From NCBI RefSeq assembly GCF_030013595.1, contig NZ_CP122768.1: a DNA stretch of 64,000 nt. One strand, given 5' to 3'. The notes under the pieces were generated by a model, which was not told the DNA's origin, ran no database searches, and saw only the letters and a program-made list of their open reading frames with translations. Shown here one piece after another: positions 12,100-64,000 of the stretch. How positions within the stretch are numbered: the stretch's first letter is position 1; every line of letters starts with the position of its first letter. The translations under genes were made by a program, and so were the position numbers. This DNA comes from Escherichia coli (GTDB lineage Bacteria; Pseudomonadota; Gammaproteobacteria; Enterobacterales; Enterobacteriaceae).

Positions 12100-12405
12100 C
12101 ACCGGCCCTTTCCGCCGTCTCGCAAACGGGCGCTGGCTTAAGGAAAGGATGTTCCATGGCCGTAAATGCAGGTGTTTCACAGCGCTTGCTATCGCGGCAA
12201 TATCGCCAGTGGTGCTGTCGTGATGCGGTCTTCGCATGGACCGCACAATGAAGATACGGTGCTTTTGTATCGTACTTATTGTTTCTGGTGCGCTGTTAAG
12301 CGAGGTAAATAATAACCGGAGTCTCTCCGGTAACAATTTACTGGTGGTTAACAAACTTCAGAGCAGCAAGTAAGCCCGAATGCCGCCCTTTGGGGCGGCA
12401 TATTT
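12100..12405 (+). ncRNA. ryfA: ryfA-type small RNA / timP mRNA, copy 1 (5' end not determined)
   Basis: Location between sseA and sseB where RyfA maps in E. coli; ends at hairpin gccgccc-tttg-gggcggc plus atatttt; contains small hydrophobic ORF. Confidence 0.45.
12236..12373 (+). CDS. timP: small hydrophobic protein, TimP-like type I toxin candidate (MDRTMKIRCFCIVLIVSGALLSEVNNNRSLSGNNLLVVNKLQSSK; may start at second Met)
   Basis: Own translation; ORF below the 60-aa track cutoff; hydrophobic TM-like core IRCFCIVLIVSGALL; position inside ryfA. Confidence 0.5.
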   Translation: MDRTMKIRCFCIVLIVSGALLSEVNNNRSLSGNNLLVVNKLQSSK

Positions 12406-12488
12406 TAGATTATCCGATGCTGTTTAAAGTCACGCAAAAAACCACCCCAGCGACGTTCATAGAATGGCGCAATATGTTCGGTAATAAA
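12395..12488 (-). pseudogene. duplicated 3'-terminal fragment of sseB (~30 codons) carried in repeat unit A
   Basis: Sequence ttagattatccgatgctgtttaaagtcacgcaaaaaaccaccccagcgacgttcatagaatggcgcaatatgttcggtaataaa is identical to the 3' end of sseB at 13083-13166. Confidence 0.8.
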
Positions 12489-12779
12489 ATAACCTAGCTT
12501 ATTAGTCCGAATTCAGACAAATATAAACAATTTTCGCTTAATATTAAAAATACTAACCAATAAAAGATATTACTTGAACATGTAATTTCACTTTCTTTAA
12601 ACAACAAAAAACCGCCAAAATCAGGCGGTTATTTGTTGCTGGTCTGGTTCGCGGCCTTTCCAGCAGATTGTATTACCGTAGTAATGCAAGCGCGTCTCAG
12701 CGGACACAATACTCGCCAGTAACTCTCTTTTTGTCAAGTAAAAGAGAGTTATTATTGTTCTGTTAGTGTATTATCCACT

Positions 12780-13085
12780 GCGGACCTTTCCGCCGTCTCG
12801 CAAGCGGGCGCTGGCTTAAGGAAAGGATGTTCCGCGACCGTTAGAGCAAGCGCGTCTCAGCGCTTGCTATCGCGGCAATATCGCCAGTGGTGCTGTCGTG
12901 ATGCGGTCTTCGCATGGACCGCACAATGAAGATACGGTGCTTTTGTATCGTACTTATTGTTTCTGGTGCGCTGTTAAGCGAGGTAAATAATAACCGGAGT
13001 CTCTCCGGTAACAATTTACTGGTGGTTAACAAACTTCAGAGCAGCAAGTAAGCCCGAATGCCGCCCTTTGGGGCGGCATATTTTA
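12780..13085 (+). ncRNA. ryfA: ryfA-type small RNA / timP mRNA, copy 2 (5' end not determined)
   Basis: Duplicate of copy 1; terminator hairpin 13060-13077 and T-tract overlap the sseB stop codon. Confidence 0.45.
12914..13051 (+). CDS. timP: small hydrophobic protein, TimP-like type I toxin candidate, copy 2 (identical 45-aa translation)
   Basis: Own translation of atggaccgcacaatgaagatacggtgcttttgtatcgta...agcagcaagtaa. Confidence 0.5.
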   Translation: MDRTMKIRCFCIVLIVSGALLSEVNNNRSLSGNNLLVVNKLQSSK

Positions 13086-32370: not shown

Positions 32371-32378
32371 GAAAGATG

Positions 32379-32396
32379 CCGGATGCGGCGTGAACT
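32379..32396. repeat. left half of a REP palindromic unit (gccggatgcggcgtgaac), split by the IS insertion
   Basis: Joined with 33828-33844 it reconstitutes GCCGGATGCGGCGTGAACGCCTTATCCGGCC, the E. coli REP consensus as I recall it. Confidence 0.85.
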
Positions 32397-32859
32397 GAAC
32401 TGCACCCCAAATGTTGGACATAATCTGACATCTGAAGGTGCAGTTTATGAAACATTCATTTGAAGTAAAACTTGCCGCTGTAAATCATTACCTGGCTGGT
32501 CATGCAGGCATCATTTCTACGGCAAAACTCTTTCAACTTTCTCACACCAGCCTCTCACACTGGATTAATCTTTTTCTTCTTCACGGTCCTCGTGCACTGG
32601 ATTGCAGACACAAGCGTAGCTATTCTCCTGAAGATAAACTTTGCGTGGTTCTTTATGCTCTCGGGCATTCTGAGTCTCTACCCCGGGTAGCTGCCCGGTT
32701 TAACATTCCCAGCCACAACACGGTTAAAAACTGGATAAAAGGCTACCGCAAATCTGGTAATGAGGCCTTTATCAGGCGCAGGAAGGAGAAAAGCATGACC
32801 CGTTCTGATGATACCCATGAAAACGAGGCAAACATGACGCCGGAAGAGATGAAGAATGA

Positions 32860-33827
<968 letters not shown>

Positions 33828-55070: not shown

Positions 55071-56474
55071 ATGAATCAACAGGATATTGAACAGGTGGTG
55101 AAAGCGGTACTGCTGAAAATGCAAAGCAGTGACACGCCGCCCGCCGCCCTTCATGAGATGGGTGTTTTCGCGTCCCTGGATGACGCCGTTGCGGCAGCCA
55201 AAGTCGCCCAGCAAGGGTTAAAAAGCGTGGCAATGCGCCAGTTAGCCATTGCTGCCATTCGTGAGGCAGGCGAAAAACACGCCAGAGATTTAGCGGAACT
55301 TGCCGTCAGTGAAACCGGCATGGGGCGCGTCGAAGATAAATTTGCCAAAAACGTCGCTCAGGCGCGCGGCACACCAGGCGTTGAGTGCCTCTCTCCGCAA
55401 GTGCTGACGGGCGACAACGGCCTGACTTTAATTGAAAACGCGCCCTGGGGCGTGGTGGCTTCGGTGACGCCTTCCACTAACCCGGCGGCAACCGTAATTA
55501 ACAACGCCATCAGCCTGATTGCCGCGGGCAACAGCGTCATTTTTGCCCCGCATCCGGCGGCGAAAAAAGTCTCCCAGCGGGCGATTACGCTGCTCAACCA
55601 GGCGATTGTTGCCGCAGGCGGGCCGGAAAACTTACTGGTTACTGTGGTCAATCCGGATATCGAAACCGCGCAACGTTTGTTCAAGTTTCCGGGTATCGGC
55701 CTTTTGGTGGTGACCGGCGGCGAAGCGGTAGTGGAAGCGGCGCGTAAACACACCAATAAACGTCTGATTGCCGCGGGCGCTGGCAACCCACCGGTAGTGG
55801 TGGATGAAACCGCCGACCTCGCCCGTGCCGCTCAGTCCATCGTCAAAGGCGCTTCTTTCGATAACAACATCATTTGTGCCGACGAAAAGGTACTGATTGT
55901 TGTTGATAGCGTAGCCGATGAACTGATGCGTCTGATGGAAGGCCAGCACGCGGTGAAACTGACCGCAGAGCAGGCGCAGCAGCTGGAACCGGTGTTGCTG
56001 AAAAATATCGACGAGCGCGGAAAAGGCACCGTCAGCCGTGACTGGGTTGGTCGCGATGCGGCGAAAATCGCGGCGGCAATCGGCCTTAAAGTTCCGGAAC
56101 AAACGCGACTGCTGTTTGTAGAAACCACCGCAGAACATCCGTTTGCCGTGACCGAACTGATGATGCCGGTGCTGCCCGTCGTGCGTGTCGCCAACGTGGC
56201 GGATGCCATTGCGCTGGCGGTGAAACTGGAAGGCGGTTGCCACCACACGGCGGCAATGCACTCGCGCAACATCGAGAACATGAACCAGATGGCGAACGCC
56301 ATTGATACCAGCATCTTCGTTAAGAACGGACCGTGCATTGCCGGGCTGGGGCTGGGCGGGGAAGGCTGGACCACCATGACCATCACCACGCCAACCGGTG
56401 AAGGGGTAACCAGCGCGCGTACGTTTGTCCGTCTGCGTCGCTGTGTATTAGTCGATGCGTTTCGCATTGTTTAA
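55071..56474 (+). CDS. eutE: EutE acetaldehyde dehydrogenase (acetylating)
   Basis: ORF track 467 aa; ALDH fold. Confidence 0.92.
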   Translation: MNQQDIEQVVKAVLLKMQSSDTPPAALHEMGVFASLDDAVAAAKVAQQGLKSVAMRQLAIAAIREAGEKHARDLAELAVSETGMGRVEDKFAKNVAQARGTPGVECLSPQVLTGDNGLTLIENAPWGVVASVTPSTNPAATVINNAISLIAAGNSVIFAPHPAAKKVSQRAITLLNQAIVAAGGPENLLVTVVNPDIETAQRLFKFPGIGLLVVTGGEAVVEAARKHTNKRLIAAGAGNPPVVVDETADLARAAQSIVKGASFDNNIICADEKVLIVVDSVADELMRLMEGQHAVKLTAEQAQQLEPVLLKNIDERGKGTVSRDWVGRDAAKIAAAIGLKVPEQTRLLFVETTAEHPFAVTELMMPVLPVVRVANVADAIALAVKLEGGCHHTAAMHSRNIENMNQMANAIDTSIFVKNGPCIAGLGLGGEGWTTMTITTPTGEGVTSARTFVRLRRCVLVDAFRIV

Positions 56475-56484
56475 GGAGTAACAG

Positions 56485-56910
56485 ATGGCGCACGACGAAC
56501 AATGGCTCACCCCGCGTCTGCAAACGGCGGCAACGCTGTGTAACCAGACGCCTGCCGCAACGGAATCTCCGCTGTGGCTGGGGGGGGATCTGGGCACCTG
56601 CGATGTGGTGTCGATGGTTGTCGACCGCGACGGTCAGCCGGTGGCGGTATGCCTCGACTGGGCCGATGTGGTCCGCGACGGCATCGTCTGGGATTTCTTC
56701 GGTGCGGTCACCATTGTTCGTCGCCATCTCGACACCCTCGAGCAGCAATTCGGTCGCCGTTTTAGCCATGCGGCGACCTCATTTCCTCCAGGTACGGACC
56801 CGCGTATTTCCATCAACGTGCTGGAATCTGCCGGGCTGGAAGTGAGCCATGTGCTGGATGAGCCAACCGCAGTCGCGGATCTGCTGCAACTGGACAACGC
56901 AGGCGTAGTG
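56485..56910 (+). pseudogene. eutJ: eutJ 5' portion (142 codons), interrupted by IS10
   Basis: Reading frame MAHDEQWLTPRL...LQLDNAGVV runs straight into the IS10 outside end at 56911. Confidence 0.9.
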
Positions 56911-58239
56911 CTGATGAATCCCCTAATGATTTTGGTAAAAATCATTAAGTTAAGGTGGATACACATCTTGTCATATGATCAAATGGTTTCGCGAAAAATC
57001 AATAATCAGACAACAAGATGTGCGAACTCGATATTTTACACGACTCTCTTTACCAATTCTGCCCCGAATTACACTTAAAACGACTCAACAGCTTAACGTT
57101 GGCTTGCCACGCATTACTTGACTGTAAAACTCTCACTCTTACCGAACTTGGCCGTAACCTGCCAACCAAAGCGAGAACAAAACATAACATCAAACGAATC
57201 GACCGATTGTTAGGTAATCGTCACCTCCACAAAGAGCGACTCGCTGTATACCGTTGGCATGCTAGCTTTATCTGTTCGGGCAATACGATGCCCATTGTAC
57301 TTGTTGACTGGTCTGATATTCGTGAGCAAAAACGACTTATGGTATTGCGAGCTTCAGTCGCACTACACGGTCGTTCTGTTACTCTTTATGAGAAAGCGTT
57401 CCCGCTTTCAGAGCAATGTTCAAAGAAAGCTCATGACCAATTTCTAGCCGACCTTGCGAGCATTCTACCGAGTAACACCACACCGCTCATTGTCAGTGAT
57501 GCTGGCTTTAAAGTGCCATGGTATAAATCCGTTGAGAAGCTGGGTTGGTACTGGTTAAGTCGAGTAAGAGGAAAAGTACAATATGCAGACCTAGGAGCGG
57601 AAAACTGGAAACCTATCAGCAACTTACATGATATGTCATCTAGTCACTCAAAGACTTTAGGCTATAAGAGGCTGACTAAAAGCAATCCAATCTCATGCCA
57701 AATTCTATTGTATAAATCTCGCTCTAAAGGCCGAAAAAATCAGCGCTCGACACGGACTCATTGTCACCACCCGTCACCTAAAATCTACTCAGCGTCGGCA
57801 AAGGAGCCATGGGTTCTAGCAACTAACTTACCTGTTGAAATTCGAACACCCAAACAACTTGTTAATATCTATTCGAAGCGAATGCAGATTGAAGAAACCT
57901 TCCGAGACTTGAAAAGTCCTGCCTACGGACTAGGCCTACGCCATAGCCGAACGAGCAGCTCAGAGCGTTTTGATATCATGCTGCTAATCGCCCTGATGCT
58001 TCAACTAACATGTTGGCTTGCGGGCGTTCATGCTCAGAAACAAGGTTGGGACAAGCACTTCCAGGCTAACACAGTCAGAAATCGAAACGTACTCTCAACA
58101 GTTCGCTTAGGCATGGAAGTTTTGCGGCATTCTGGCTACACAATAACAAGGGAAGACTTACTCGTGGCTGCAACCCTACTAGCTCAAAATTTATTCACAC
58201 ATGGTTACGCTTTGGGGAAATTATGAGGGGATCTCTCAG
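56911..58239 (+). mobile_element. IS10 (complete, 1329 bp) inserted in eutJ, flanked by 9-bp target duplication GGCGTAGTG
   Basis: Outside end CTGATGAATCCCCTAATGATTTTGGTAAAAATCATTAAG at 56911; inside end ...GGGGATCTCTCAG at 58239; direct repeat ggcgtagtg at 56902-56910 and 58240-58248. Confidence 0.95.
57018..58226 (+). CDS. IS10 transposase (402 aa)
   Basis: ORF track MCELDILHDSLYQFCPELHLKRLNSLTLACHALLDCK..., recognised as IS10/Tn10 transposase. Confidence 0.95.
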   Translation: MCELDILHDSLYQFCPELHLKRLNSLTLACHALLDCKTLTLTELGRNLPTKARTKHNIKRIDRLLGNRHLHKERLAVYRWHASFICSGNTMPIVLVDWSDIREQKRLMVLRASVALHGRSVTLYEKAFPLSEQCSKKAHDQFLADLASILPSNTTPLIVSDAGFKVPWYKSVEKLGWYWLSRVRGKVQYADLGAENWKPISNLHDMSSSHSKTLGYKRLTKSNPISCQILLYKSRSKGRKNQRSTRTHCHHPSPKIYSASAKEPWVLATNLPVEIRTPKQLVNIYSKRMQIEETFRDLKSPAYGLGLRHSRTSSSERFDIMLLIALMLQLTCWLAGVHAQKQGWDKHFQANTVRNRNVLSTVRLGMEVLRHSGYTITREDLLVAATLLAQNLFTHGYALGKL

Positions 58240-58659
58240 GGCGTAGTGGATATCGGCGGCGGCACTACCGGCATTGCCATCGTGAAAAAGGGCAAGGTGA
58301 CGTACTCGGCGGATGAAGCCACTGGCGGACATCACATCTCTCTGACTCTCGCCGGAAATCGCCGTATTTCGCTGGAAGAGGCGGAGCAGTACAAGCGCGG
58401 TCACGGTGAAGAGATTTGGCCTGCGGTGAAACCGGTGTACGAAAAAATGGCGGACATTGTCGCCCGGCATATTGAAGGGCAGGGCATTACTGATTTATGG
58501 CTGGCGGGCGGCTCCTGTATGCAACCGGGCGTGGCGGAACTGTTTTGCAAACAATTCCCGGCGTTACAGGTGCATCTACCGCAGCACAGTTTGTTTATGA
58601 CCCCGCTGGCGATCGCCAGTAGCGGGCGAGAGAAAGCGGAGGGGATCTATGCAAAATGA
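58240..58659 (+). pseudogene. eutJ: eutJ 3' portion, continues in frame after the IS10 and its target duplication
   Basis: GVVDIGGGTTGIAIV... to stop; 426 + 420 - 9 bp = 837 bp, the expected 278-aa EutJ length. Confidence 0.9.
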
Positions 58660-59836
58660 ATTGCAGACCGCGCTCTTTCAGGCGTTCGATACCCTGAATC
58701 TGCAACGGGTAAAAACATTTAGCGTTCCACCAGTGACGCTTTGCGGTCCGGGCGCGATGAGCAGTTGCGGGCAGCAAGCGCAAACGCGTGGGCTGAAACA
58801 TCTGTTCGTGATGGCAGACAGCTTTTTGCATCAGGCGGGGATGACCGCCGGGCTGACGCGTAGCCTGGCCGTTAAAGGTATCGCCATGACGCTCTGGCCA
58901 TGTCCGGTGGGCGAACCGTGCATCACCGACGTGTGTGCAGCCGTGGCGCAGTTGCGTGAATCGGGTTGCGATGGGGTGATCGCGTTTGGCGGCGGCTCGG
59001 TGCTGGATGCAGCAAAAGCCGTGGCGTTGCTGGTGACGAACCCGGATAGCACGCTGGCAGAGATGTCAGAAACCAGCGTTCTGCAACCGCGCCTGCCGTT
59101 GATTGCCATTCCAACTACCGCCGGAACCGGTTCTGAAACCACCAACGTAACGGTGATTATCGACGCGGTGAGCGGGCGCAAGCAGGTGTTAGCCCACGCC
59201 TCGCTGATGCCGGATGTGGCGATTCTCGACGCTACGCTGACCGAAGGCGTGCCGTCGCATGTCACGGCGATGACCGGTATCGACGCGTTAACCCATGCTA
59301 TTGAAGCGTACAGCGCGCTGAACGCTACACCGTTTACCGACAGCCTGGCGATTGGCGCAATCGCGATGATTGGTAAATCACTGCCGAAAGCGGTGGGCTA
59401 CGGTCATGACCTTGCCGCGCGCGAGAGCATGTTGCTGGCTTCATGCATGGCGGGAATGGCGTTTTCCAGTGCGGGGCTTGGGTTATGCCACGCGATGGCG
59501 CATCAGCCAGGGGCGGCGCTGCATATTCCGCACGGTCTGGCGAACGCTATGTTGCTGCCAACGGTGATGGAATTTAACCGGATGGTTTGTCGTGATCGGT
59601 TTAGCTTGGTTGGTCGGGCGCTGCGAACTAAAAAATCCGACGATCGTGACGCTATTAACGCGGTAAGTGAGCTGATTGCGGAAGTCGGGATTGGTAAACG
59701 ACTGGGCGATATTGGTGCGACATCTGCGCATTACGGCGCATGGGCGCAGGCCGCGCTGGAAGATATTTGTCTGCGCAGCAACCCGCGTACCGCCAGCCTG
59801 GAGCAGATTGTCGGCCTGTACGCAGCGGCGCAATAA
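58649..59836 (+). CDS. eutG: EutG iron-dependent alcohol dehydrogenase
   Basis: ORF track 395 aa; Fe-ADH family; intact but downstream of IS10 (probably polar). Confidence 0.9.
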   Translation: MQNELQTALFQAFDTLNLQRVKTFSVPPVTLCGPGAMSSCGQQAQTRGLKHLFVMADSFLHQAGMTAGLTRSLAVKGIAMTLWPCPVGEPCITDVCAAVAQLRESGCDGVIAFGGGSVLDAAKAVALLVTNPDSTLAEMSETSVLQPRLPLIAIPTTAGTGSETTNVTVIIDAVSGRKQVLAHASLMPDVAILDATLTEGVPSHVTAMTGIDALTHAIEAYSALNATPFTDSLAIGAIAMIGKSLPKAVGYGHDLAARESMLLASCMAGMAFSSAGLGLCHAMAHQPGAALHIPHGLANAMLLPTVMEFNRMVCRDRFSLVGRALRTKKSDDRDAINAVSELIAEVGIGKRLGDIGATSAHYGAWAQAALEDICLRSNPRTASLEQIVGLYAAAQ

Positions 59837-59843
59837 AAGTGTA

Positions 59844-59957
59844 CGGACAGTCCCCTCGCCCCTTTGGGGAGAGGGTTAGGGTGAGGGGAACAGAGTCGCG
59901 CCGGTGCAAACAATTACCCTCACCCCGGCCCCTCGGCTTCCAGAGTGAGGGAAAAAC
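59844..59957. repeat. pair of inverted Box C-like GC-rich repeats between eutG and eutH
   Basis: cccctcgcccctttggggagagggttagggtgaggggaa and inverted partner ttaccctcaccccggcccctcggcttccagagtgaggg; related to 45098-45162. Confidence 0.55.
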
Positions 59958-60005
59958 CCACTTTCAGCATTGGCAATAAATAACAACTAACAGGGAGTAA
60001 AGGCG

Positions 60006-61232
60006 ATGGGAATTAACGAAATCATCATGTACATCATGATGTTCTTTATGCTGATAGCTGCCGTAGACAGGATCCTGTCGCAGTTCGGCGGTTCTGCTCG
60101 TTTCCTCGGTAAGTTCGGTAAAAGTATCGAAGGATCCGGCGGGCAGTTTGAAGAAGGCTTTATGGCGATGGGCGCACTGGGCCTGGCGATGGTTGGTATG
60201 ACCGCGCTGGCACCTGTTCTGGCCCACGTACTCGGACCGGTGATTATCCCGGTTTACGAAATGCTCGGTGCAAACCCGTCAATGTTCGCCGGAACACTGC
60301 TGGCGTGCGATATGGGCGGGTTCTTCCTCGCCAAAGAGCTGGCGGGCGGCGACGTAGCAGCGTGGCTATACTCTGGGTTAATTCTCGGGTCGATGATGGG
60401 GCCAACGATTGTGTTTTCCATTCCGGTGGCGCTCGGCATTATCGAACCTTCTGACCGTCGTTATCTGGCGCTCGGCGTGCTGGCGGGCATTGTGACCATT
60501 CCGATTGGCTGTATTGCTGGTGGTCTGGTTGCTATGTACTCCGGTGTGCAGATCAACGGTCAGCCGGTGGAATTCACCTTTGCGCTGATCCTGATGAACA
60601 TGATCCCGGTACTTATCGTTGCGGTGCTGGTGGCGCTGGGGCTGAAATTCATCCCGGAAAAAATGATCAACGGCTTCCAGATCTTCGCCAAATTCCTCGT
60701 TGCATTGATCACCCTCGGTCTTGCTGCCGCGGTAGTGAAATTCCTCCTTGGCTGGGAACTGATCCCGGGCCTTGATCCTATCTTTATGGCCCCTGGCGAC
60801 AAACCCGGTGAAGTGATGCGCGCCATTGAAGTTATCGGTTCTATCTCCTGCGTTCTGTTAGGGGCGTATCCGATGGTGCTGCTGCTGACCCGCTGGTTTG
60901 AAAAACCGCTGATGAGCGTCGGTAAAGTGCTGAATATGAACAACATCGCGGCAGCCGGCATGGTGGCAACGCTTGCCAACAACATCCCGATGTTCGGCAT
61001 GATGAAGCAGATGGATACCCGCGGCAAAGTCATCAACTGCGCCTTCGCCGTTTCCGCTGCTTTCGCCCTGGGCGACCACTTAGGCTTCGCCGCTGCCAAC
61101 ATGAACGCCATGATTTTCCCGATGATTGTCGGCAAATTGATCGGCGGCGTAACGGCGATTGGCGTGGCGATGATGCTGGTGCCAAAAGAAGACGCGACCG
61201 CGGCTAAAACCGAAGCGGAGGCACAATCGTGA
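60006..61232 (+). CDS. eutH: EutH ethanolamine permease
   Basis: ORF track 408 aa; polytopic membrane protein. Confidence 0.92.
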   Translation: MGINEIIMYIMMFFMLIAAVDRILSQFGGSARFLGKFGKSIEGSGGQFEEGFMAMGALGLAMVGMTALAPVLAHVLGPVIIPVYEMLGANPSMFAGTLLACDMGGFFLAKELAGGDVAAWLYSGLILGSMMGPTIVFSIPVALGIIEPSDRRYLALGVLAGIVTIPIGCIAGGLVAMYSGVQINGQPVEFTFALILMNMIPVLIVAVLVALGLKFIPEKMINGFQIFAKFLVALITLGLAAAVVKFLLGWELIPGLDPIFMAPGDKPGEVMRAIEVIGSISCVLLGAYPMVLLLTRWFEKPLMSVGKVLNMNNIAAAGMVATLANNIPMFGMMKQMDTRGKVINCAFAVSAAFALGDHLGFAAANMNAMIFPMIVGKLIGGVTAIGVAMMLVPKEDATAAKTEAEAQS

Positions 61233-62632
61233 ACACTCGCCAGCTACTGAGCGTCGGTATCGATATCGGCACCACCACCACCCAGGTGATTTTCTCCCAC
61301 CTGGAGCTGGTTAACCGTGCGGCGGTGTCGCAGGTGCCGCGCTACGAATTCATCAAACGCGAAATTAGCTGGCAAAGCCCGGTGTTCTTTACCCCTGTCG
61401 ATAAACAGGGTGGTTTAAAAGAAGCGGAACTGAAAACCTTAATCCTCGAGCAATATCAGGCTGCGGGCATTGCGCCGGAAAGCGTTGATTCTGGTGCCAT
61501 CATTATCACCGGTGAAAGCGCAAAAACCCGCAACGCTCGCCCGGCGGTGATGGCGCTCTCCCGGTCGCTGGGCGATTTTGTCGTCGCCAGCGCCGGGCCG
61601 CATCTTGAATCCGTGATCGCCGGACACGGTGCCGGGGCGCAAACCCTTTCTGAACAACGGCTGTGTCGGGTCCTGAATATCGATATCGGCGGTGGCACCG
61701 CGAACTACGCCCTGTTCGATGCCGGAAAAATCAGCGGCACTGCCTGCCTCAACGTCAGCGGTCGCCTGCTGGAAACCGACAGCCAGGGGCGCGTGGTTTA
61801 CGCTCATAAACCGGGGCAGATGATTGTGGATGAGTGCTTCGGTGCCGGTACTGACGCCCGTTCGCTGACTGGCGGGCAGCTGGTGCAGGTTACCCGCCGG
61901 ATGGCAGAGCTGATTGTCGAAGTGATTGACGGAACGCTCTCGCCGCTCGCGCAGGCATTGATGCAAACCGATTTGCTGCCCGCAGGTGTTACGCCCGAAA
62001 TCATTACGCTTTCTGGCGGGGTAGGCGAATGTTATCGCCACCAGCCCACCGACCCGTTCTGTTTTGCCGATATCGGCCCGCTTCTGGCAACGGCGCTGCA
62101 TGACCATCCGCGTCTGCGTGAGATGAACGTGCAGTTTCCGGCGCAAACCGTGCGCGCCACGGTGATTGGCGCGGGTGCTCATACCCTTTCGCTCTCTGGC
62201 AGCACAATCTGGCTGGAGGGCGTACAACTGCCGCTGCGCAATTTGCCAGTGGCGATCCCGATTGATGAAACGGATCTGGTCAGTGCCTGGCAACAGGCGC
62301 TGATTCAACTGGATCTTTGCCCCAAAACTGACGCGTACGTGCTGGCGCTTCCCGCCTCGCTGCCTGTGCGTTACGCCGCGGTACTGACGGTCATCAACGC
62401 GCTGGTCGATTTCGTCGCGCGTTTTCCGAATCCGCATCCCCTGCTGGTGGTGGCCGGGCAGGACTTTGGTAAAGCTCTGGGCATGTTGTTGCGCCCACAG
62501 CTACAACAACTCCCGTTGGCAGTCATTGACGAAGTGATTGTCCGCGCGGGGGACTATATCGACATTGGTACGCCTCTTTTTGGCGGATCGGTTGTGCCGG
62601 TGACGGTGAAATCACTCGCATTTCCTTCCTGA
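61229..62632 (+). CDS. eutA: EutA ethanolamine ammonia-lyase reactivase
   Basis: ORF track 467 aa MNTRQLLSVGIDIGTTTTQV... Confidence 0.92.
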   Translation: MNTRQLLSVGIDIGTTTTQVIFSHLELVNRAAVSQVPRYEFIKREISWQSPVFFTPVDKQGGLKEAELKTLILEQYQAAGIAPESVDSGAIIITGESAKTRNARPAVMALSRSLGDFVVASAGPHLESVIAGHGAGAQTLSEQRLCRVLNIDIGGGTANYALFDAGKISGTACLNVSGRLLETDSQGRVVYAHKPGQMIVDECFGAGTDARSLTGGQLVQVTRRMAELIVEVIDGTLSPLAQALMQTDLLPAGVTPEIITLSGGVGECYRHQPTDPFCFADIGPLLATALHDHPRLREMNVQFPAQTVRATVIGAGAHTLSLSGSTIWLEGVQLPLRNLPVAIPIDETDLVSAWQQALIQLDLCPKTDAYVLALPASLPVRYAAVLTVINALVDFVARFPNPHPLLVVAGQDFGKALGMLLRPQLQQLPLAVIDEVIVRAGDYIDIGTPLFGGSVVPVTVKSLAFPS

Positions 62633-62643
62633 GGGAACGACTT

Positions 62644-63456
62644 ATGAAACTAAAGACCACATTGTTCGGCAATGTATATCAGTTTAAGGATGTAAAAGAG
62701 GTGCTGGCTAAAGCCAACGAACTGCGTTCGGGGGATGTGCTGGCGGGCGTTGCTGCGGCAAGTTCACAGGAGCGCGTGGCGGCAAAGCAGGTGTTGTCGG
62801 AAATGACCGTAGCGGACATCCGCAATAATCCGGTGATTGCCTATGAAGATGACTGCGTGACGCGGCTGATTCAGGACGACGTTAACGAAACGGCCTATAA
62901 CCAGATTAAAAACTGGAGCATCAGCGAACTGCGTGAGTATGTGCTGAGCGATGAAATCAGCGTGGACGACATTGCCTTTACCCGCAAAGGGCTGACCTCG
63001 GAAGTGGTGGCGGCGGTAGCGAAGATTTGCTCCAACGCGGACCTGATCTACAGCGCGAAGAAAATGCCGGTGATCAAAAAGGCCAATACCACCATCGGTA
63101 TTCCGGGCACCTTTAGCGCCCGTTTGCAGCCGAACGATACCCGTGACGACGTGCAAAGTATCGCCGCGCAAATCTACGAAGGGCTTTCCTTCGGGGTGGG
63201 CGATGCGGTGATTGGCGTTAACCCGGTGACTGACGACGTGGAAAACTTAAGCCGCGTGTTGGATACCATTTATGGCGTGATCGACAAATTCAACATCCCA
63301 ACTCAGGGCTGCGTACTGGCGCACGTCACCACCCAGATCGAAGCGATCCGTCGTGGCGCACCAGGCGGGCTGATTTTCCAGAGTATCTGTGGCAGCGAAA
63401 AAGGGCTGAAAGAGTTTGGCGTAGAGCTGGCGATGCTCGATGAAGCACGCGCAGTG
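62644..63456 (+). pseudogene. eutB: eutB 5' portion (271 codons of ~453) truncated by second IS10
   Basis: MKLKTTLFGNVYQFKDVKEVLAKANELRSGD... reads into IS10 inside end at 63457 (the ORF-track tail RDPLIISPKRNHV is IS10-encoded). Confidence 0.9.
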
Positions 63457-64000
63457 CTGAGAGATCCCCTCATAATTTCCCCAAAGCGTAACCATGTGTG
63501 AATAAATTTTGAGCTAGTAGGGTTGCAGCCACGAGTAAGTCTTCCCTTGTTATTGTGTAGCCAGAATGCCGCAAAACTTCCATGCCTAAGCGAACTGTTG
63601 AGAGTACGTTTCGATTTCTGACTGTGTTAGCCTGGAAGTGCTTGTCCCAACCTTGTTTCTGAGCATGAACGCCCGCAAGCCAACATGTTAGTTGAAGCAT
63701 CAGGGCGATTAGCAGCATGATATCAAAACGCTCTGAGCTGCTCGTTCGGCTATGGCGTAGGCCTAGTCCGTAGGCAGGACTTTTCAAGTCTCGGAAGGTT
63801 TCTTCAATCTGCATTCGCTTCGAATAGATATTAACAAGTTGTTTGGGTGTTCGAATTTCAACAGGTAAGTTAGTTGCTAGAACCCATGGCTCCTTTGCCG
63901 ACGCTGAGTAGATTTTAGGTGACGGGTGGTGACAATGAGTCCGTGTCGAGCGCTGATTTTTTCGGCCTTTAGAGCGAGATTTATACAATAGAATTTGGCA
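63457..64000 (-). mobile_element. second IS10 copy, inverted relative to the first, partial (runs off window end)
   Basis: Inside end CTGAGAGATCCCCTCATAATTTCCCCAAAGCGTAACCATGTGTGAATAAATTTTGAGC at 63457; same sequence as reverse complement of 58180-58239. Confidence 0.93.
63470..64000 (-). CDS. IS10 transposase, C-terminal part (truncated by window end)
   Basis: ORF track 63470..63988 translation identical to the C-terminal 172 aa of the transposase at 57018-58226. Confidence 0.93.
   Translation of the reverse strand, partial: CQILLYKSRSKGRKNQRSTRTHCHHPSPKIYSASAKEPWVLATNLPVEIRTPKQLVNIYSKRMQIEETFRDLKSPAYGLGLRHSRTSSSERFDIMLLIALMLQLTCWLAGVHAQKQGWDKHFQANTVRNRNVLSTVRLGMEVLRHSGYTITREDLLVAATLLAQNLFTHGYALGKL

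Follow-up and report, generated by a model that had tools for sequence, protein, structure and literature searches.

Two oppositely oriented IS10 copies in the ethanolamine (eut) operon of a natural Escherichia coli lineage

Described systems closest to the locus

Tn10 is roughly 9.3 kb long. The locus analyzed here lies in a stretch of 64,000 nucleotides of E. coli contig NZ_CP122768.1 (assembly GCF_030013595.1), the whole of which we call the window. It resembles Tn10 in having two inverted IS10 copies whose inside ends are turned toward the cargo, in the IS10-Right type of its transposase-encoding copy, and in its comparable length (~7.9 kb). It differs from Tn10 by its cargo, which is a piece of the host's own operon at its native locus with no tet or jem genes; by its target duplications, presumably one for each IS versus a single one around the whole of Tn10; and by its second copy, whose visible part is of the Right type and not of the diverged Left type. 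Nor is there evidence of the eut unit having moved.

In E. coli K-12 the insertion of prophage CPZ-55 near the eutA/eutB boundary is a natural inactivation of the operon. As in K-12, a mobile element here inactivates a dispensable eut operon near this boundary, but the element of K-12 is a prophage and not insertion sequences, and it creates no compound-transposon geometry. Structures with an integrase next to eutB, resembling the K-12 case, were also seen in L009 and L019. In strain NIID080884 a simple IS10 (ISVsa5 in PGAP naming), likewise of 1329 bp and with a 9-bp duplication, inactivates eutE. Its eutE copy is of the IS10-Left type, differing at 16 positions from the complete copy of the window, while the window has two insertions in one operon, separated by 5.2 kb. 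No relevant publication on IS10 in combination with eut genes came up in our literature search.

The formation of a compound transposon from two successive IS insertions is described for ISApl1-mcr-1-ISApl1 (Tn6330; PMC5821093). There, as at the eut locus, one IS flanks a chromosomal segment twice, and forms with one and with two IS coexist. The two differ in that Tn6330 carries a selectable gene and occurs at many loci and on many plasmids, whereas the eut unit, whose cargo is not selectable, has been seen at a single locus.

The two IS10 copies and the interrupted eut genes

The features of the region are the following.

56485..56910, + strand: eutJ 5' fragment, codons 1-142 (NCBIfam NF011660 EutJ, positions 3-146/277, 187.8 bits)
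56902..56910, no strand: left target duplication of copy 1, GGCGTAGTG (direct read; single copy at the empty site of L003)
56911..58239, + strand: IS10 copy 1, complete, 1329 bp, IS10-Right type, outside end left and inside end right
56956..57025, - strand: RNA-OUT antisense RNA (Rfam RF00240, full model 1-70)
57018..58226, + strand: IS10 transposase, intact ORF of 402 aa (NCBIfam NF033591, IS4 family)
58240..58248, no strand: right target duplication of copy 1, GGCGTAGTG (direct read)
58240..58659, + strand: eutJ 3' fragment, with repeated codons 140-142, codons 143-278 and stop (NF011660, positions 147-276/277, 192 bits)
58649..59836, + strand: eutG, intact, 395 aa (NF011998 EutG equivalog, 882 bits, full length)
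60006..61232, + strand: eutH, intact, 408 aa (NF011665 EutH equivalog, 873 bits, full length)
61229..62632, + strand: eutA, intact, 467 aa (NF007991 EutA equivalog, 1066 bits, full length)
62644..63456, + strand: eutB 5' fragment, codons 1-271/453 (NF011649 EutB, positions 2-268/461)
63448..63456, no strand: target of copy 2, CGCGCAGTG, near-side copy (eutB codons 269-271)
63457..64000, - strand: IS10 copy 2, only the 544 bp of the inside-end part (IS10 positions 1329-786), cut by the window end

Copy 1 starts with the outside end CTGATGAATCCCCTAATGATTTT, present once in the whole window against 0 occurrences expected by chance, and its terminus (58217-58239) is the reverse complement of the inside end CTGAGAGATCCCCTCATAATTTC. 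Both ends are exact matches to the IS10 termini, in inverted orientation, and are bordered by a perfect 9-bp duplication. A complete IS10 splitting eutJ at 56911-58239, as proposed in the first-pass annotation, was confirmed when the sequence was read again, with both copies of GGCGTAGTG in place. The ORF of copy 1 matches the NF033591 profile with 404 bits (cut-off 152), from which it is predicted to encode an intact IS4-family DDE transposase, and RNA-OUT scores 98.8 bits for a gathering score of 41. Across its 1329 bp copy 1 shows 100% identity to IS10 copies that lie beside tetD on many plasmids and are interrupted there by IS1. Judged by its sequence, copy 1 is an IS10: length, ends, transposase, RNA-OUT, duplication and identity with IS10-Right all agree.

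The order eutE-eutJ-eutG-eutH-eutA-eutB was recovered with the NCBIfam models, EutJ as two halves and EutB as its N-terminal 271 aa, and the region is colinear with the annotated eut operons of L001, L002 and L026. The scores of eutG, eutH and eutA all exceed the equivalog cut-offs. In eutJ the insertion lies after codon 142, and the two resulting pieces, of 142 and 136 codons, together account for all 278. The 5217 bp between the two inside ends comprise the eutJ 3' part, eutG, eutH, eutA and the eutB 5' part; the prime marks that the first-pass annotation gave to eutJ and eutB are therefore reversed. The eutB ORF extends 45 nt into IS10, giving a fusion product of 285 aa that is also encoded in draft assemblies.

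A second IS10, oppositely oriented and interrupting eutB at 63457, had likewise been proposed, and its inside end and 544 identical bp are indeed seen. The inside end is on the + strand from the first base, 63457, and the interval 63457-64000 is 100% reverse-complementary to 57696-58239 (544 nt), which assigns the visible part to the Right type and not to the diverged Left type. The window covers only 41% of copy 2, and its outside end and far-side duplication lie past position 64000. Copy 2 is probably complete. On its far side one would then expect IS10 positions 785 to 1, with ...AAAATCATTAGGGGATTCATCAG as the last bases, next CGCGCAGTG, and then eutB from codon 272 (GGCGCGGAGTTC...).

Related genomes and the probable order of the insertions

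Across 5605 + 5313 bp (~10.9 kb), the draft E. coli assembly L003 (GCA_021649405.1) matches the window without a single mismatch. It carries the eutB::IS10 junction, but its eutJ is uninterrupted and contains a single GGCGTAGTG; all other eut genes in its gene table are full length, and the flanks follow the normal E. coli eut order. Two other drafts, L004 (GCA_036246605.1, 2 samples) and L005 (GCA_008326365.1, 3 samples), have contigs running from inside end to inside end across the 5.2 kb, with 100% identity to the window and with both inside-end junctions. In the look-up of the 285-aa EutB'-IS10 fusion the only matches were short draft contigs. The exact-protein look-up had no entry for the 197-aa EutJ'-IS10 product, likely because its ORF goes 168 nt into IS10, past the breaks of draft contigs.

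These assemblies bear on whether the arrangement could be an assembly artefact that wrongly placed or collapsed IS10 repeats within the eut operon. Over the 544 bp that they share, the two copies have 100% identity, and identical repeats do mislead assemblers. Nevertheless independent draft assemblies, covering six samples, show exactly the same sequence at three junctions (copy 1 inside end/eutJ, and eutB/copy 2 inside end in its one-insertion and two-insertion forms); the duplication around copy 1 is perfect, and the eutJ halves sum to exactly 278 codons. An artefact is thus very improbable. The worry voiced in the first-pass annotation, that the copies might be repeats collapsed from elsewhere, is made unlikely by L004 and L005, since each carries both inside-end junctions.

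Neither insertion is found among the complete E. coli genomes (0/5426), while IS10 itself is present in 1967 of these 5426 (36%), in as many as 45 places in a single genome. The closest complete genome is HCP5S3_I2, with 99.9% identity and neither insertion. When the nearest relative's rare HemF allele was looked up, eutB was intact at all loci listed, in a result where similar places are collapsed and interrupted ones may be hidden. Elsewhere in the genome of the window, an IS-mediated inversion of about 96 kb is present at an IS1397 copy.

L003 has the insertion in eutB and an empty site in eutJ; therefore the two IS10 copies represent separate insertions. We consider it very probable that, in a natural E. 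coli lineage, IS10 of the Right type entered the chromosomal eut operon twice, by two independent and successive simple insertions. The insertion into eutB presumably preceded that into eutJ, assuming that the eutJ copy was gained and not precisely excised in L003. IS10 would first have entered eutB at CGCGCAGTG by cut-and-paste transposition, destroying the large subunit of ethanolamine ammonia-lyase and cutting off eutC, eutL, eutK and eutR from the operon promoter. The second IS10 would have entered eutJ later, at GGCGTAGTG, 5.2 kb upstream and in the opposite orientation, in an operon already dead. The Tn10-like geometry would be a by-product of both insertions. IS10 has a target preference with the consensus NGCTNAGCN, which both targets fit at 4/6 core positions by our count.

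Another origin was considered and ruled out, namely a deletion or inversion promoted by IS10 inside ends. From the known mechanism, such an event would give copies in direct orientation and inverted flanking DNA. At the eut locus it is the copies that are inverted, while the segment keeps its native orientation and a separate duplication surrounds copy 1.

No assembly of the window lineage yielded the outside end of copy 2. In the exact-protein look-up of the 183-aa product of the eutB 3' part, for which one amino-acid change in the fragment would hide a match, the outside-end junction appeared only in L010, from another E. coli read set and in a diverged background; repeating this look-up with a short flank added one further short contig only, a metagenome scaffold. 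An alternative product of the eutB 3' part, of 147 aa, is too common for an informative look-up. In L010 an IS10 occupies the exact eutB site, and its outside end is followed by CGCGCAGTG and by the remaining eutB through eutR. We sought the upstream contig of the L010 sample with 14 guessed fusion variants (EutB S137, G137 and T105; Right or Left tails; full or 279-281 aa), none of which is in the collection. The L010 insertion may be independent and not the event of the window lineage, because its outside end is of the IS10-Left type and because the sequence immediately downstream of the junction diverges by 1.0-1.3% from the nearest relative of the window. It is possible that CGCGCAGTG of eutB is a recurrent hot spot, struck independently by Right-type and Left-type IS10 across lineages.

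Alternatively, a deletion promoted by IS10, or recombination with a further IS10 copy, could have rearranged the far side of copy 2 and left the eutB 3' part no longer adjacent. This would account for the lack of a lineage contig joining the outside end to the eutB 3' part, given that the 183-aa call is made in other genomes, and the inversion at IS1397 is a precedent within the same genome. A missing match is nonetheless weak evidence when the exact protein is needed, a simple insertion is by far the commonest outcome of IS10 transposition, and the structure of a simple insertion is found at this very site in L010. We therefore judge a rearrangement improbable and retain a simple insertion at eutB.

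The enclosed eut segment as a possible mobile unit

The first-pass annotation had described a Tn10-like geometry and suggested that the segment could in principle move as a composite transposon. The geometry stands: the two elements lie in inverted orientation with their inside ends turned toward the eut genes between them, and copy 1 has its outside end pointing outward, as copy 2 would, given its orientation. No tet genes or further Tn10 cargo are present, as had been stated. As to mobility, a theoretical capacity is retained, while the native operon context, the separate duplication of copy 1 and the one-insertion precursor L003 speak against any use of it.

If the outside end of copy 2 is intact, synapsis of both outside ends by the transposase could mobilize the ~7.9-kb unit in the manner of Tn10. 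Outside ends can form a paired-end complex together, while the inside end, which lacks the IHF site, is unable to do so on its own (PMC3159471). This ability, the geometry matching that of Tn10 with the outside ends outermost as far as visible, and the predicted integrity of the copy 1 transposase would all favor a functional compound transposon moving, or maintained, as a unit with eutG, eutH and eutA. The surroundings of the unit argue otherwise. No single 9-bp duplication encloses the whole unit, the left flank GGCGTAGTG being duplicated around copy 1 alone and the target of copy 2 being the different 9-mer CGCGCAGTG; an uninterrupted eut operon aligns colinearly with the interior of the unit and with its surroundings on either side; and a precursor with one insertion exists.

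Its distribution points the same way. A second location of the unit was not found in the 5426 complete E. coli genomes, none of which has either insertion, nor in the plasmid collection or in two metagenome junction scans (one for each copy 2 junction, both empty). The plasmid collection has no true plasmid with the segment: the full-length E. coli matches are only records of 1.4-4.9 Mb with 96-98% identity, most likely mislabelled chromosomes. Finally the cargo appears promoterless, with eutJ and eutB truncated, and would thus offer no selectable function. A functional compound transposon moving or maintained as a unit is for these reasons very improbable. There is no sign that the eut segment ever moved as a unit, and its promoterless cargo could not confer ethanolamine use. 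Another proposal, which we put forward only tentatively and hold to be rather unlikely, is that of a newborn Tn10-type compound transposon, competent for transposition as a unit, in which IS10 flanks a group of metabolic genes of the host, and with its one-IS precursor surviving in a sister isolate.

Two successive simple insertions thus remain our preferred reading. What they amount to is ordinary: a dispensable operon recently put out of action by an insertion sequence that is already known. Eut function is probably lost, and we predict that the strain cannot use ethanolamine; annotations should treat its eut operon as non-functional and eutJ and eutB as pseudogenes. The inverted identical IS10 copies 5.2 kb apart also form a substrate for inversion of the segment and a predictable break point for short-read assemblies. 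The locus is a clean natural example of a dispensable operon decaying through successive IS insertions, and of how chance can produce a compound-transposon geometry, the intermediate still being present in a sister isolate.

IS10 copies in eutJ and eutB

The IS10 reported in eutJ by the first-pass annotation is complete: its coordinates, both of its ends and the 9-bp target duplication on either side can be read in the sequence. Inspection of 56700-58400 and 63300-64000 bears out the positions reported for both copies. The features of this copy (copy 1) and of the one entering eutB (copy 2) are as follows.

56911-58239: IS10 copy 1, 1329 bp, read directly from the sequence
Left terminus of copy 1: outside end, CTGATGAATCCCCTAATGATTTT, sole match in 64 kb (0 expected by chance)
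58217-58239: inside end of copy 1, right terminus
57018-58226: intact transposase ORF of copy 1, 402 aa (NCBIfam IS4-transposase model, 404 bits, cut-off 152)
56956-57025, minus strand: full-length RNA-OUT (Rfam, 98.8 bits)
56902-56910 and 58240-58248: target duplication GGCGTAGTG, on both flanks of copy 1
63457 to window end: IS10 copy 2, visible 544 bp, perfect inside end on the + strand at 63457

Copy 1 splits eutJ after codon 142, and in an NCBIfam profile search the two halves cover positions 3-146 and 147-276 of the EutJ profile. Copy 2 interrupts eutB after codon 271, the preceding 9 bp being CGCGCAGTG; over its 544 bp it is the exact reverse complement of 57696-58239 in copy 1, which, with the inside end at 63457, bears out the claim of a second IS10 in opposite orientation. 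The interval between the copies, 5217 bp, contains three full-length genes, eutG, eutH and eutA, preceded by the 3' part of eutJ and followed by the 5' part of eutB. Neither further IS10 sequence nor any tet gene is present in the 64-kb window, and the earlier statement on tet is therefore correct, as is, so far as it is visible, the Tn10-like geometry.

The core GCGNAGTG is common to both targets (56902-56910 and 63448-63456) and agrees with GCTNAGC, the IS10 target consensus, at 4 of 6 positions. Once the insertions are taken out, the + strand of the reconstructed 62-kb sequence has only eight such sites. The eut operon also has two perfect GCTNAGC sites, both unused.

The flanks are ordinary E. 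coli chromosome (dapE, acrD, narQ, tkt, tal, maeB, then eutS onward). The best complete genome, that of the pig isolate HCP5S3_I2, shares 99.9% identity with the eut region and with window 7401-32395 and lacks both IS10 insertions; neither is present in any of the 5426 complete E. coli genomes. The HCP5S3_I2 annotation gives eutE (L002, 2672-4075) as a pseudogene containing an internal stop, whereas the window has an intact ORF of 467 aa (55071-56474). In other E. coli contigs a phage integrase gene adjoins eutB (L009, 9129-10001; L019, 7697-9084), an arrangement like that of the CPZ-55 prophage that interrupts eut in K-12.

Elsewhere in the window an IS1397 (IS3 family, 32396-33827; junction 32378-32395) lies in the middle of a REP palindrome. 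On its left is the yphA side of the REP between yphB and yphA, and on its right the ypfN side of the REP between ypfH and ypfN; in HCP5S3_I2 both sites are free of IS1397. Window 7401-32395 matches that genome on the opposite strand, ~96 kb from the place predicted by synteny, which indicates a ~96-kb inversion from yphA to ypfH, with IS1397 at the join. A tandem pair of full-length ryfA sRNA genes (12102-12406 and 12780-13084; 311 and 310 bits), separated by an IS128 RNA (12438-12648), accounts for a 300-nt direct repeat at 678-bp spacing.

Probable order of the insertions

Draft assemblies of six samples contain exact matches to the 285-aa EutB'-IS10 fusion product, on contigs of three kinds. 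L004 (GCA_036246605.1) and L005 (GCA_008326365.1) match the window at 100% identity and run from the inside end of copy 1 through 5.2 kb to the inside end of copy 2. A protein of the L004 contig that belongs to the same cluster bears the NCBI name E. coli EutJ. The junctions are thus real, and an artefact of a single assembly is rejected.

L003 (GCA_021649405.1) has the eutB::IS10 junction and shows no mismatch to the window over 5605 + 5313 bp, but its eutJ is uninterrupted and GGCGTAGTG occurs there once only. The structure was thus built by two separate insertions. We infer that the eutB insertion most likely preceded that in eutJ: IS10 would have entered eutB first, and later the eutJ of an already broken operon. 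The alternative to this eutB-first order is that L003 lost its eutJ copy by precise excision. Every other eut gene of L003 is full length, so the inactivation is recent.

IS10 types and the far junction of copy 2

Copy 1 is 100% identical to IS10 copies adjoining tetD on many plasmids, the place of IS10-Right in Tn10. Sixteen positions set copy 1 apart from the IS10 found in eutE of strain NIID080884, whose outside-end variant, TTTTTATCAA, is the IS10-Left form. The visible part of copy 2 covers 7 of these 16 positions and is of Right type there. The NIID080884 element (L001, 4001-5329; duplication TGCAGAACA) is a third, unrelated IS10 in a eut operon, Left-type.

For the far junction of copy 2 we built the expected sequence and used its predicted 183-aa product as a query. 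It matched one Logan contig, L010 (ERR11841091 contig 62), seen in two samples plus one further similar place. L010 begins with TTGATAAAAATCATTAGGGGATTCATCAG, CGCGCAGTG and GGCGCGGAG in succession, then carries the remaining eutB, eutC, eutL, eutK, eutR and hemF. Thus, where an IS10 occupies exactly this eutB site in this orientation, an outside end and the predicted duplication are present. L010 probably belongs to a lineage other than the window's, because its outside end is Left-type and it differs from HCP5S3_I2 by 1.0-1.3% from 60 nt past the junction, against only 0.04-0.1% for the window. L010 1-38, compared with window 63448-63456, is a Left-type IS10 in a diverged background, and may reflect either a separate insertion at a favoured target or an allele transferred by recombination. 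No far junction from the window's own lineage came up with guessed upstream-product variants, a rare HemF allele, a short-flank repeat look-up or two metagenome scans. Copy 2 is very likely a complete simple insertion.

The unit as a possible composite transposon

Tn10 moves via its two outside ends; it does so far less often than a single IS10, and the rate drops with length. The IS10/Tn10 transposase works on any suitably oriented pair of ends; outside ends have an IHF site and can pair together, and an inside end alone forms no paired-end complex (PMC3159471). By mechanism the IS10-eut-IS10 unit could be a compound transposon; by evidence this is not shown. Of the composite transposon proposed in the first-pass annotation the geometry stands and the function is unproven, since the unit sits at its native locus with no duplication around the whole, and a one-IS precursor is documented. 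The segment was not found on true plasmids. The cargo lacks its own promoter, and without eutBC it cannot enable ethanolamine use.

IS10 occurs in 36% of complete E. coli genomes, in up to 45 places per genome, and with an element so common two hits in one dead operon are unremarkable; neither the element nor this type of arrangement is new. The simplest description is two IS10 insertions inactivating a dispensable operon, and loss of the eut operon is under way by different routes in close relatives.
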